Source: Eledone cirrhosa (Eukaryota). Taken from it: a stretch of 64,000 bases of DNA. Shown here in pieces: positions 3,600 through 63,512 of this stretch. The notes under the pieces were generated by a model that saw only the letters and a program-made list of their open reading frames with translations, was not told where the DNA came from and did not search any database. A program made the position numbers and the translations under genes. The DNA is taken from contig OZ024742.1 of the NCBI GenBank assembly GCA_964016885.1, forward strand, positions 257,052,001 through 257,116,000, written 5' to 3'. The stretch's first letter is position 1. Each line of letters starts with the position of its first letter.

Positions 3600-4056
3600 C
3601 ACATTGTTTCCTCAGTTCGATTTAATGAGCTCCATCCCACTCGGTAAGCGAATGGCGTCTGGAATCTGACTGAGTGGTAAAAGAATTGGACACTCAATCG
3701 TGAGATTTTGAGTTTGACCGGACGAGGCTTTATGTCCTTGGTAAGACACTTTATTTCATGTTGCTCATATATACATATATTCAAAGAGAAAGTACTAAAC
3801 TATAATATATATGTACATAAACGGAACAAAATCGCGTGCTAATGTTTTAAGCACCCGTGATTATCATATCACAATAAATTGAGCAACATTGAAATAAATT
3901 GTCTTGACCAAGGACATAACATACTGCCGGTCCATGAAACGAAATCACAAACTCACGATTGAATGTCCAATTCTTTTACCACTCAGCCAGATTCCAGACC
4001 TCATTCGCTTAACGGGTGGGATGAGGCTCATTAAATCGAACTGAGGAAAACATGTT
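3600..4056. repeat. Inverted repeat containing a tRNA-derived SINE head
   Basis: 3600-3745 (ttcctcagttcgatttaatgag...gagtggtaaaagaattggaca...aatcgtgag) is the approximate reverse complement of 3905-4056. The inner part resembles the SINE at 6864. Confidence 0.8.
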
Positions 4057-4468
4057 TTCCATTCATCGATTGCTAATACTTTCTATCGGTCGCAAATGTG
4101 TATTGGTTTATGACATAACGCATCACCAGGGAATCAAACATCACGTTTGCGAATCCAATTCTCCAACCACTCAGTCATATATGTAATACCTATCTATCTT
4201 TCTATCTATATATATATATATTTATATATATATATATATATATATATATATATATATATATATATACATACACACGTGTGTGTGTTATTTCTTTGCGCGT
4301 GCGTGTATATATATATATATATAATATATATATCAAATATATATATATATATATATATATATATTCTGTTGGATAAATCTATATCCTGTTTCTTTTTGAA
4401 TTGAGTTTGAATTTTTTTCCCACATCTTACGTTAACTATTTTCCAATTTTGACGCTATAGTCCCTTAT

Positions 4469-4702
4469 ACATTATGGAATAATTGTTTCTACATTTTGGC
4501 ACAAGGCCAGCAATTACCCACTGCATTACTGGTACTTTATGTTATCGACCCCGTAAGGATGAAAGGCAAAGTTAACCTCGGCAGAATTAACTTTGCCTTT
4601 CATCCTTACGGGGTCGATAAAATAAAGTACCAGTAATGCACTGGGTAATTGCTGGCCTTGTGCCAACATGTAGAAACAATTATTGAAACATTATGGAATA
4701 AT
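4469..4702. mobile_element. Fold-back (head-to-head) SINE 3' half with 15-bp target-site duplication
   Basis: About 95-bp arms (4478-4575 and 4587-4684) are near-perfect reverse complements around loop cctcggcagaa; acattatggaataat occurs at 4469-4483 and 4688-4702. Confidence 0.85.
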
Positions 4703-58535: not shown

Positions 58536-61500
58536 AGTATTAAGGATACTATTTATGGTTATGTATATAATAAAACCTTTTATGGTTATATATATTTAAA
58601 CTCTAAATAGTGAATGACAGTCATTCATTACTATCTTATTACCAGTAAGATAAATAGCTCAATATAATAACATCAGTTGTTTTACAGAGCAGTTATATAG
58701 AAATTACATGAATCAACATTCAGTTTAAATCATTTATTTGCTTACAATTGTTTCCTCCAAACCGAGGTTTGGTTTCTTCGGAGCAAATATTTAGTGATAT
58801 TTCACATACTTGACTTCCTTATCAACACAAGAGACATGCAAAAACATATGTATATATTGACCCACAGTGAGTTGACATCCATCATAATGATATAGCATGG
58901 CAATTTACATACAAAGGTTACATTCATATTAAAGGACAAAATTAAAGTTAAAATTAGAATTTAAAAAAAAAATAAATAAAAATAAAACATTGGCAGTTTA
59001 TGAAGATTAAGCAAGAGGAAAGTTTAGAGAATTCAGTGAATGAAACAGTCTCACGTGTGGCATGCACGCGTGTCTTATTTATACAGGATTATAGTGCGCC
59101 AGATTGTTACATGTAAGAACAAGCAGTAAAAGCAGGCAATCTATAGCATCATGGGGGCTGTATTGTTAAAGCATTTTCACACACACCTGTACGATATATA
59201 AGCCCGTTTGTAGAGAAACACCAAAAATATCTAGAATATTACAAATGAGAAGCCAAACAGCACCACTGTCCTGGCACCCACCACCATTCACATAATCCAG
59301 GAAACGCAATTTATAGTTTACATGTCCATCACTCAATCCACGATGATACAACATTGGGTGTCTGTTGAATCATGATATAAATCATATCTTGTCGTTTCTT
59401 AATTTGATTCATAGATCAGGATGTTTTTGTTGTGAGGGATGACATTGTATTATATTCCGGAAGTGTGTGTGTGACTAAGGGGAGTTAATTCGTAAGGGGA
59501 GGTAACTAGCTGATTATCATAGTGAAATTTATTATCCTAAAGTACATTAATGGTGTTTCAAATGAGTCCCTATCATATAACGTTATAAACAATTTCTAAA
59601 TTTAAGTATCTTATCTATAAATTACAGTGTAGTCTATTAAGAAGTACTAAAGGTGTTCATATCCGTATGATTACCTTCTATCACGGAGTGCCACAACCGA
59701 ACATTCTACAAGAAGAGTCAGACCTCCAAAGCAATGATCTTTGTAAGTGTAGTCCGCCCGCAGAACCTGGCAGGGTCTTATTACTGTATATGACTCACGG
59801 TAAGCTCTGAGTCATTGTATGTCTGAATGCATGGCAAAGTTAAATATCACCAGGGTGGTCCAGAGATCAATTCTCTCATATAAAGACACTAATCTGGCCA
59901 TCAAGCCATACATATACTCATAACTCATATATCACCTGTATATAATTCATTGCACTCAGCATATAGAATATATAGCCCTTATAATAAATTACATACTTAA
60001 TCTTCTATCTATCCTATGGTGGCATTCCATGCACAGGACAATGTTAGCACAACCAATTCAGTGCCTACAGTTTACATTAATTATATATTAGTGCAATGTT
60101 GTCCAAGTAATTCAATATACCAAAAGTATAAGTGCATGGGGATATCTCTAGGGTAAAGGTACTATTAGGGTTAAAGTGGACTAATGGGTGTGGAGATGAC
60201 GTGTAAGGTGTGACCCTGATGCTAGTTGCTAGAGGTGGTGTCGGGTTCAAGTCTGACATTGTTATATTTTGGGTTTAAAGTTTTGGAAAGAGTGTCGGAA
60301 GCGGTGTTGGCAAGACGAGAACACTTCTGATTTTTTATTAAGGAGGTTGGGGTTAGAGAAGATGATAGTATGGGTCTCTAGTAGACAGAGGTTACAAAAT
60401 GTATTAGGTGGTTTGTACGAATCGCATTACCTATCACTTCCCATTTAAGTGTATATGGTTTATTTTTAGTTTTTAGATAGTGTATGTAGCTAGATAGTGA
60501 AGTGGAGTTGGCTAGACTGTGTTTTTTGAAAGAGTGGAGGTGCGAATTGTATCTAGTTTTGAAGCAGTTAGAAGTAGAGCCTATATATGTTTCAGAAGAG
60601 TTGGTAGTTGTGACTGTGCATGAGTATATGATATCCTTGATTAAGCATTTTTTATCTAAAGGGCAGGTTCTATTTGATCTACAGTTACAATTATTCTGGG
60701 TGTTAGTCTGCCGGTTATTATGTTGTGTAGAAGTCTGGATGGTAGCAATAGGGTTATGGATAAGTGGGTTGTCGTTCCCAGCGTTATTGTTTACACTAGT
60801 GCTATTACTATTATTTCTATTGATATTAGGGTTAGTTGCTATAATGTTATTTTGAAGGTTTATCGTCTGCTGTGATTTAGTTTGTTGGAAGTAAGAATTA
60901 ATTTTCCTTTTATTGCTACTAGCTATGTGGTATGCTATGTTAGGCGTAGTAGAGTAGGAGATTTTAATAGTGTTTTTGTTTAAAAGGCTATGGTACTTGT
61001 GGCCGGATGGGAAGTGTTTATCTAGTAGTGAGAAGTAAGCCCTAGGTAGGTTGGTAGAGACGTTTAGATTGAAAGGAGGGTTGAAAAATGTATTATTTCT
61101 TCTTCTATTTTTGTTTTTTTATGTCTGGTGAGTTGTTTCCTTTTATGGTACTATGGTAATTTCTGTGGTGTGGCTTACTTTTGTTGGTATCATCTCTATT
61201 AGTGTGTGTGTGGTTGCTATTCCTATTACTAACTTTTCTGATGGACATGTTGTGCGAAATAATGTTGTAGCTATGTGTTTTTGTAGGTAGGAACTCGATC
61301 TCTATGTTATGGCCTGATCTAGCTAATGCTTGATTATAATATTGGGAGTTTTTGTTAAATATGTTTACGTCATAGGATAGATTAGAGATTCTATTAGATA
61401 CTCCCTTAGAGATAGAGTTTAATATAGATCTAGGGTGGTTAGACATAGTATCTACGTAAATGAGTTTTTCATTAGGTTTGTGGAAAGGTGCATATATCAT

Positions 61501-63512
61501 AGAGTCTAGGTAGAGGGTGGCGTCCAGAAAGTTGGCGTTTTTAGTGTTTTTGTCCATGGTAATACTAATGTTATAATTTTTTAATGTCTTGTGCAATAGT
61601 TTTCTACTTCTTTCTATATTGAATTTTTTATAATCTATAAGTAGAAGTGCATCATCGCGGTACAAACCATCGTTGAGGTATGGAAGGTCCTTATGGATTT
61701 CGTTAAGTAATTATAGGCCGAATAAATCAGTGACCTGCGCTGAGTCACTAGACCCCATGGTTATGTCGAAGTTGTTTTGCGTATCTTTGCGGGTCCATAA
61801 TTGGTCTTCAAAGGTGATTAGTGTTTTACGGGCCGCAAGTATGACATCGATCTGGAGTCTAGTCGTTCACTATTGTCCATGGCCATGATAAGTGCCTTAT
61901 TTAATAGGATAGGGGAAATAGAGGTGTAGTAAGAATTGATATCAAATTGAATACATTTTTTACCTTGTTATCCTTGATATCTTTGAACCATTCAACCACT
62001 TCACCCGTATTTCCCCATTGTTTAAGGTATATATTGTGATTAATCTGTGGGAGGATTTTATCTAAAATGTTCTTACTATAATGCCAATGTCAGACTTGGA
62101 AGGGCAGATGAGTCTAATCGAGGGGTTGCTAATGCAGTCCTCCTTATGGTCCTTCAGAGAGACTCTAGGGGGGTTAGGGGTATATGGTTGTGTATGTCTC
62201 TGTAGTCCTAGTTTGGACACTATATTATAGCCTTCCATATTAATATCTTCTAAGTTTTTCATAGTGGTTTTCTTATAGCTTTTATGTAGTTCATTATATA
62301 TAAACTTTCTATAAGTATTATAATCTAGGCTGTATATGTTATTAGTTTTGTCCGCATGTAGAATAATTGTATTACTAGTTTTGAAATCATTAATAGAGGT
62401 GCTAAGTTTGTTTAAGAAGGTGTTGTTTTTATTACGGTGCTTTTTGTATTTAATATTCTTAACTAGTTTTATTAGGTCATTTTCAAAGGAGTTTAGTAGT
62501 GTGTTATGAGGGGGGCTTCTAAAGGTTTTAAAGCCGAATGAGTCAAATTTGTTAGTATTATTAGCCTTGCTAGATTTGTTTTTATCATAATGGAATGTCC
62601 CCCATCTCACTCTATTGATAAAGGAGTTTATACTGTCGATCAATAATTTTTCAGATGTATTTTTGGGTGGTATTGGTATGTTCTTGGTTGACATAGGGAG
62701 TTGGTCTTTGATCAGCATACTGGTAATATATTGTATGTCAGCTCTACAGTATGGAGCAGTTAATAGTATTAAGGATACTATTTATGGTTATGTATATAAT
62801 AAAAACTTTTATGGTTATATATATTTAAACTCTAAATAGTGAGAGACAGTAATTCATTACTATCCTATTACCAGTAAGATAAATAGCTCAATGTAATAAC
62901 ATCAGTTGTTTTACAGAGCAGTTATATAGAAATTACATGAATCAATGTTTTGCTTCTCATTTGTAATATTCTATATATCTTTGGTGTTTTTCTACAAACG
63001 GGCTTATATATCGTACGGGTGTGTGTGAAAAATGCTTTAACAATACAGCCCCCATGATGCTATTGATTGCCTGCTTTTACTGCTTGTTCTTACATGTAAC
63101 AATCTGGCGCACTATAATCCTGTATAAATAAGACACGCGTGCATGACACACGTGAGACTGTTTCATGCACACACTACTCTAAACTTTCCTCTTGCTTTAT
63201 CTTCATAAACTGCCAATGTTATATTTTTATTTTTATTTTTATTTTTATTTTTTATTCTAATTTTAACTTTAATATTGTTCTTTAATATGAATGTAACCTT
63301 TGTATGTAAATTGCCATGCTATATCATTATGATGGATGTCAACACACTGTGGGTCAATATATACATATGTTTTTGCATGTCTCTTGTGTTGATAAGGAGG
63401 GCAAGTATGTGAGAAATCACTAAATAGTTTCTACGAAGAATCTAAACCTCGGTTTGGAGGAAACAATTGTAAGCAAATAAATGATTTAAACTGAACTTTG
63501 ATTCATGCAATT
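58536..63512 (-). mobile_element. Naiad-type element 6, full length, with direct and inverted pLTRs
   Basis: Direct repeat 58534-58714 vs 62764-62945; inverted pair 58700-59259 vs 62946-63512; (TA)n on both sides. Confidence 0.93.
60262..62718 (-). pseudogene. PLE RT plus GIY-YIG ORF with several frameshifts
   Basis: STKNIPIPP, RVRWGTFHYD, ADKTNNIY, LKDHK, MGSSDSAQVTDL, YRDDA, FNPPF, CNCRSNRTCPLDKKC, YIGSTS, CNLCLLE, SCQHR; stop at 60262. Confidence 0.94.

Follow-up and report, generated by a model that had tools for sequence, protein, structure and literature searches.

The 64-kb stretch at positions 257,052,001-257,116,000 of contig C3 (OZ024742.1) in the Eledone cirrhosa assembly GCA_964016885.1, a genome of 3.0 Gb in 1,796 contigs, is rich in (TA)n at 34% G+C and carries Penelope-like elements (PLEs), with and without open reading frames (ORFs), that lie mostly in (TA)n as inverted repeats. 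We refer to this whole stretch as the window and to its repeat families by the letters A to K and M. Calling inverted repeats with arms of at least 50 nt and at least 80% identity, with simple repeats masked, gave 18 calls in the window, of which 15 are PLE-type and in 12 one arm ends no more than 15 nt from (TA)n. An earlier note on this DNA had reported more than 15 inverted repeats, most of them abutting (TA)n, and both statements hold; every structure that it named was recovered in place by self-BLAST. The mechanism that it proposed is incomplete and its clade is wrong: the architecture is a known one, seen here in Hydra-clade families, new and abundant, and in their non-coding parasites.

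For comparison, 40 evenly spaced 10-kb tiles (400 kb) gave 72 calls, some of them redundant. One end lies within 15 nt of TA in 35 of the 72 (null 15%), and 21 of the 72 are TA-near at one end and have the other end within 200 nt of TA (null 4.5%), so that flanking (TA)n is enriched above chance. Among those 21, the second end is offset by 26-95 nt in 16 and both sides are flush in 5. With 18 calls against about 11.5 per 64 kb in the tiles, the window has a modest surplus and is fairly typical of the genome, in which PLE-type hairpins are one major source of inverted repeats among others. Pairs of repeats resembling short interspersed nuclear elements (SINE-like), matched by 17/72 tile calls, are about equally common. 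Extrapolation from 16 TA-flush/offset inverted repeats per 400 kb of tiles suggests roughly 100,000 or more genome-wide, a number that would matter for repeat annotation, assembly and possibly the load of double-stranded RNA.

On sequence motifs, the ORF-bearing elements are assigned to the Hydra clade of PLEs. ORFs at 8.2-10.2, 18.3-19.9, 25.8-26.2, 35.9-38.0, 42.6-44.8 and 60.4-62.7 kb match a 719-aa family B frame (locus L123), and families B, C and M and the L123 frame have a single ORF in which reverse transcriptase (RT) precedes GIY-YIG. The motifs RMRWK and LDKT occur in L123, RVRWG and ADKT in family C, and DKT also in family M; RWK is present in 104 and DKT in 119 of the 120 listed homologues. 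The CxCx5C linker and the CxxC and CxH flanking a conserved E and N are all found in families B and M; family C has the linker, family D has CxxC and CxH with a degenerate linker, and the three motifs occur in 117, 118 and 115 of the same 120 homologues. Pfam had no match for 9 of 12 ORFs, and the PLE pieces gave only weak GIY-YIG matches (E=0.004, below the Pfam cut-off). Hydra-ORF sequence is carried by family B, C, D and F insertions and by K loci. Because RT comes first and the C-terminal GIY-YIG, RWK, DKT, CxCx5C, CxxC/CxH and hammerheads match the features given for the Hydra clade, along with its (TA)n target, by Craig et al. 2021 (PMC8557442), we place the elements there; the call combines these motifs with comparison by eye to reference proteins, among which Hydra-1_Obim is collinear with the family B ORF over the part of that protein shown. 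Family B units are longer (~3.6 kb) than the generally <3 kb that the same source gives for the clade. At least seven ORF-bearing families occur in this one window, each with hundreds to thousands of first-look candidates where searched, and ORF-less partners are present, whereas the supplement of PMC8557442 lists Hydra-1_Obim without a pseudo-long terminal repeat (pLTR). The elements had been called Naiad PLEs in the earlier note. Naiads resemble them in (TA)n preference and in inverted or tandem structures, but have an N-terminal endonuclease (EN), DKA, an IFD and, according to PMC8557442, no canonical hammerhead; RT before GIY-YIG, DKT instead of DKA, and canonical hammerheads in families B, C, D and H rule that identity out.

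In each family tested, 3' ends occur at two fixed positions, long (L) and short (S), 60-167 nt apart (tails in A-H). At 30 family B loci, all ends are of two kinds, S itself and S extended by a 75-77-nt tail (L), with (TA)n following in each case, and families C, D, E, F, G, H, I, J and K behave in the same way. The L and S sites both finish in short TA-like, AT-rich sequence. The ORF-less elements have the same end structure as the PLEs, and the note was right to group them in one system. Counting adjacent outward-facing ends of families B-K programmatically over all 347 loci, with duplicates removed, we found 125 L+S pairs and a single L+L (125/126), and L+S in 34/34 pairs from loci fetched for other families or random tiles; 113/125 L+S pairs are free of internal TA tracts. 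Tail sequence was part of the queries for C, D, G, H and I, which favoured L arms and biases the depth classes below, not the partner end type. Family A, excluded from this count for an S site in low-complexity sequence, was read by hand (30 loci and the 47.9-kb copy) and gave 14 L+S and 1 S+S, the remainder being one-armed or unclear. The architecture itself is known; here L+S pairing is near-obligate. A strict L+S pairing rule, or its use against self-priming, was not found in the literature, with subscription journals sparsely covered. Within a few bases beyond S, families G (ORF-less) and B (ORF-bearing) both carry one 13-nt motif, which may be a cis signal common to them. Better folding than in mononucleotide shuffles is limited to the tails of A, C and G (z -3.1, -2.5 and -5.2), and no tail structure common to the families was seen.

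The relative depth of the two arms bears on how they were made. A cDNA that folds back recopies only its own content, so one arm must lie within the other. In the 17.8-kb family B element, the 2.8-kb ORF arm has no 77-nt tail and the tail is only on the short arm; neither arm contains the other, and fold-back cannot explain it. Among 80 insertions of families B-H, the L arm is deeper in 29, the S arm is deeper in 24, 20 are symmetric and 7 are tail-only (the L arm exceeding the tail by at most 15 nt); the corresponding numbers for family A are 5, 4, 1 and 4. In this tally the window C element was moved by hand to L deeper, the script having chosen the wrong pLTR copy, and the 39.3-kb hairpin counts as L deeper owing to an internal deletion. 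S-deeper and tail-only insertions, 39/94 in all and 14/19 in family B (query without tail), are incompatible with fold-back alone, so that fold-back of a single cDNA cannot be the general cause. The earlier note had one fold-back step making all the structures: one process behind most hairpins agrees with the PLE-type calls of the window, but that process is not a single fold-back, and the step inferred there is not new, being close to the self-priming hypothesis of PMC3846280. L arms tend to end at S: 6/68 terminate no more than 20 nt from it, compared with none in the following 40 nt, and in family A 4/14 terminate within ~5 nt. In 13 family B pairs the two arms agree in subfamily and finer variants, with 0-2 discordant polymorphic sites in 11/13, and discordance to other copies has a median of 12-65% in the informative pairs, three pairs being too short. 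This common haplotype fits one RNA, one source locus or later conversion. No A-to-I footprint is present in the family B DNA copies (private A>G 28/1,137 A; T>C 39/1,279 T), a comparison that does not cover transcripts.

We consider it likely that these insertions arise when Hydra PLEs and their ORF-less relatives enter (TA)n with both nicked strands priming at two fixed sites and the cDNAs being joined. The proposal takes from observation the clade motifs, the two fixed ends, L+S pairing, the greater depth of either arm, tail-only arms and the common haplotype, and adds both-strand nicking, TA-homology priming, the behaviour of the L cDNA at S and end joining. A protein dimer would nick both (TA)n strands, and both would prime reverse transcription on one source RNA through 2-4 nt of TA-like homology, one at L and the other at S. 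An L cDNA stopping near S would leave a plain inversion, and one reading through S an inverted repeat; the two cDNA 3' ends would then be joined, which would leave a bare hairpin wherever the two had stopped at one position, with fold-back perhaps supplying the joint in some symmetric cases. Dual target priming fits the in vitro behaviour of PAc, a Poseidon PLE from Anolis (Frangieh et al. 2024, PMC11167929), whose protein nicks and extends both strands of an AT-rich target, and in which two internal RT start sites bound the tail, hammerhead cleavage is not needed and a dimer is predicted; PAc differs in belonging to another clade, and the main text of that study draws no link to inverted insertions. 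On balance, we lean towards the wider view that PLEs normally integrate by programmed twin priming (a dimer, two RNA-defined sites, both junctions 3' ends), occasionally with two RNAs, and that ~100,000 hairpins were written in this way here. The L+S rule, the fold-back-incompatible class and near-intact young families with defined start sites (such as that of the 719-aa frame at L123) make the mechanism testable in vitro.

Several observations weigh against dual priming with joined cDNAs as a full account. In the PAc study the start site is no different between strands (PMC11167929), and the proposal has a gap in the templating by one RNA of two cDNAs with up to 2 kb of overlap. The lone L+L pair (L129) is itself doubtful and extends over 5.7 kb of sequence that is discontinuous and has a TA tract inside it, and there is one S+S pair (L010). 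About a third of fetched family B copies are one-armed; no second arm is evident in eleven of these (L129 among them), and several run straight into (TA)n. L-arm stops at S are only modestly in excess, with 8 falling in one other 40-nt bin (141-180 nt), and two B pairs are discordant at 8/80 and 6/84 sites, scattered and partly in low-complexity sequence. Symmetric hairpins exceed the number expected from independent stops, with 6/18 against 1.7 in family C (P=0.0008) and 8/68 against 3.7 in families B-G (P=0.016); family B has 0/19. Moreover, hairpin centres in families H and I are hot spots: 11/25 fetched H loci (the window's included) fold at the same centre, at which the query was chosen, and 20/20 fetched I loci are symmetric hairpins (found with a whole-hairpin query), with further ones met by chance. 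Both the excess and the hot spots call for a further step, whether fold-back, a common RNA end or a pause. In favour of the proposal, the spacer is at most 2 nt in 23 of 38 symmetric centres and absent in 10; others have spacers of 7-23 nt, some templated from nearby sequence. Junction letters vary among H and I copies, although 5/20 I copies have one junction in common; a single master hairpin as the sole source of H and I is ruled out by the differing letters. Joining of co-terminating ends and true fold-back probably both occur, inseparable here, and fold-back may set the centre of some symmetric hairpins.

These points lend some weight to a reading in which dual priming fixes both ends while the inverted arm comes mostly from one cDNA folding back, its copy annealing to the second cDNA. 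It accounts for common haplotypes without one RNA being copied twice and for the excess of symmetric hairpins, and some centres resemble true fold-backs with 7-13-nt loops (e.g. L330). However, tail-only inversions (11/94) require a joint between two cDNAs, L arms pass S without a visible seam in the family B ends displayed, and 10/38 centres are loop-free, so we regard this reading as doubtful. Less probable again, and unlikely, is the route outlined in PMC3846280 and PMC8557442, in which self-priming gives a head-to-head intermediate that the endonuclease cuts at L in one arm and at S in the other. Palindromic junctions are indeed common, the S and L sites are AT-rich, and random trimming could leave either arm deeper; yet it offers no reason for strict one-L-one-S cuts or for L arms stopping at S, and both tail ends are RT start sites in vitro (PMC11167929).

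A single snap-back step for every structure, the model of the earlier note, is formally compatible with 55/94 insertions (L deeper or symmetric) and would suit the excess of symmetric hairpins. We hold it very improbable: the 39 incompatible insertions include those at 17.8, 21.6, 23.7, 47.9 and 11.1 kb in the window, the copy would have to halt exactly at S every time, and the structures at 53.0, 4.5 and 3.6 kb are not PLE-derived. The most improbable reading is that two independent adjacent insertions were later homogenised by gene conversion, or that the hairpins are assembly artefacts. It is true that (TA)n tracts gather many insertions and that, among the pieces listed, independent reads bridge the 53.0-kb hairpin only: a 3,772-nt short-read contig, from a run that is possibly of the assembly's own sample, spans 51,950-53,400 with 4 differences, and no bridging contig or read was found among those pieces for the other hairpin junctions, contigs being too short in these repeats. 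But adjacent insertions would yield ~50% L+L or S+S, and most L+S pairs (113/125) have no TA tract between their arms. Arm identities of 80-99% across the window calls mean that the arms have diverged and are not perfect read or assembly palindromes.

In L1 twin priming the second target strand primes internally, which gives an inversion; it is a minority event with variable sites and no duplication. The priming proposed here differs in being apparently the usual mode, at a fixed site and with long overlaps. The standard PLE unit of PMC8557442 and PMC3846280 has head-to-head arms, a tail on one end and palindromes at the junction as here, with a tail of 30-40 bp against the longer tails of this genome; both sources describe the one-sided tail and inverted copy and invoke EN resolution and self-priming. 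Beyond that unit with its inverted 5'-truncated copy, pairing here is near-obligate, either arm can be deeper and tail-only inversions occur. The origin of tandem and inverted PLE insertions is named as an open task in PMC8557442, and further context is given in PMC8969392, PMC4209133 and bioRxiv 10.64898/2026.07.22.740005.

Hammerhead motifs, which the earlier note had placed in this system, are supported by two descriptors (4 and 6 matches in the window against 0-1 and 0-2 in shuffles) but not by Rfam, whose 138 matches in the window are all sub-threshold microRNA models on simple repeats, with no hammerhead. PLE-type hammerheads with a palindromic stem III are present in families B, C, D, H and K (variant core) and in full E units; a full E unit passes the descriptor with a stem I of 8 bp and a long stem III. 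Family A window copies have intact cores, with stems that fail both descriptors, and the family G unit has no intact hammerhead under either. The variant core CAGATGA is common to both family K arms (42487, 39981). Family I is a micro-hairpin of ~210 nt for which a first look gave 3,313 candidates genome-wide. Its longer parent copies show a hammerhead-like fold in which stem III is long and the core, CTGAGAA, is atypical, the hairpin centre being at the stem II loop. Hammerhead cleavage is ruled out as the origin of hairpin centres by where the hot spots lie: in H 87 nt 5' of the core, and in I at the loop of stem II.

No Hydra-ORF sequence was found in the ORF-less insertions of families E (0/12) and G (0/9), and 12 family H insertions have no Hydra-ORF match; one long H locus has ORF matches beside its arm. 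ORF-less A/E units of a few hundred nucleotides form tandem arrays at four loci (L015, L009, L162 and L180). As ORF-less tandem units of 450-540 nt with PLE-type ends and candidate type I hammerhead motifs, families A and E resemble non-LTR retrozymes as presented in bioRxiv 10.64898/2026.07.22.740005 and, for minimal hammerhead ribozymes, PMC4209133. Unlike those retrozymes, A and E insert as two-armed L/S units in (TA)n, and family G is without an intact hammerhead.

Table 1 Elements and other inverted repeats in the window.
Positions	Strand	Feature	Arms and ends	ORFs and hammerheads
3601..4055		Loose inverted repeat (74%) with pieces of a second SINE-like repeat, probably outside the system		
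4478..4684		SINE-like hairpin outside the system; ~150 matches in fetched loci		
6613..6829	-	Family I micro-insertion	77-nt tail + 70-nt hairpin arms	
7107..10753	-	Family J broken Hydra PLE	S end 7107; 5' pLTR 10294-10488; inverted arm 10490-10670 capped by family I tail ending at L	ORF pieces 10196-8169
11077..11238		Second family E insertion	L arm = tail + 10 nt; S arm 75 nt	
17767..21177	+	Family B Hydra PLE	Inverted L arm left = 77-nt tail + 490 nt; S arm 2.83 kb	5'-truncated RT-GIY-YIG ORF 18451-19884; hammerheads 21082 (+), 17935 (-)
21603..22620	+	Family G, ORF-less ~597-nt unit	L arm 320 nt; S arm 689 nt; tail 165 nt	Hammerhead motif half only
23745..24547	+	Family A, ORF-less ~445-454-nt unit; ~1.7 units	Inverted L arm = 60-nt tail only; S arm ~750 nt	Hammerhead-like cores 23838, 24286
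24598..27283	-	Family D truncated Hydra PLE	L arm 1.76 kb; inverted S arm 26361-27283; tail 112 nt	GIY-YIG ORF end 25752-26228; hammerheads 24864 (-), 27127 (+)
35075..38930	+	Degraded Hydra-like PLE	Inverted pLTR at (TA)n 35054-35071	Hammerhead 35268 (-)
39248..39822		Family E, ORF-less ~535-nt unit; near-symmetric hairpin	L end left (81-nt tail); S end right	
39879..47420	+	Family K arms running into family M	Family K inverted S arm 39879-40946; sense arm 41178-42581	Family M 5'-truncated 780-aa ORF 42542-44884; hammerhead-like core 47245
47899..48653	-	Second family A insertion	S arm ~620 nt left; short L-type arm right, ending ~11 nt past L	Hammerhead-like core 48154 (-)
48828..49502		Family F, 3' end of Hydra-like ORF-bearing PLE; symmetric hairpin	L end left, 167-nt tail partly deleted in window copy; S end right; short (TA)n at centre	
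51478..51883	+	Family H symmetric hairpin, family hot spot	Centre 51607; L end right; left arm terminates at alternative TA-like site within hammerhead	Hammerhead 51697
53049..53228		Palindrome outside the system	90-bp arms, 89% identical, no (TA)n	
58534..63513	-	Family C Hydra PLE, full-length but broken	L end 58534; 5' pLTR 62763-62945; inverted S arm 62946-63513; tail 162 nt	ORF pieces 62781-60378; hammerhead-like motif 58781, CCGAAGA core

The descriptions given in the earlier note need some adjustment (Table 1). The element at 58.5-63.5 kb is full-length, as claimed, with a broken ORF. The insertions described as ORF-less monomers at 21.6 and 23.7 kb are ORF-less, but the former consists of 320-nt and 689-nt arms of a ~597-nt unit and the latter holds ~1.7 units. 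One layout for all structures does not apply, the hairpin at 53.0 kb being single-copy and >1 kb from TA and those at 3.6 and 4.5 kb SINE-like. A genome search with the 53.0-kb hairpin gives 2 matches, both its own arms, and it may be a local DNA fold-back duplication. Zero-gap SINE-like hairpins like that at 4478-4684 recur in random tiles (L281:4359-5046, L292:9135-9859 and L307:342-747), which suggests a second hairpin-making route.

Two insertions are candidate cross-family chimeras. At 7107-10753 a family J arm and a family I tail appear joined at the S site of I, and at 39879-47420 the family K arm halts ~10 nt before its own S site and continues into family M; each could reflect the use of two RNAs in a single event, or an insertion that came later together with a deletion. 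The family M ORF also has an N-rich in-frame insert containing a 78-nt tandem duplication (43889-44047), resembling the N-rich inserts of rotifer PLEs described in PMC3846280.

A further TA-associated family lies at 21206-21595 and 5935-6056, with a degenerate hammerhead-like core at 21394, and makes a hairpin with 340-bp arms in one tile (L277). A broken element resembling long interspersed nuclear elements, probably of the RTE type, lies at 30619-33626 (-). It encodes an APE-type endonuclease and an RT (Pfam PF03372, PF00078). At 259-1700 (+) there is a piece of another non-LTR retrotransposon ORF, with no Pfam match for the part scanned. An extra hammerhead motif (63706-63744) is found at 63616-63760 (-), adjoining (TA)n.

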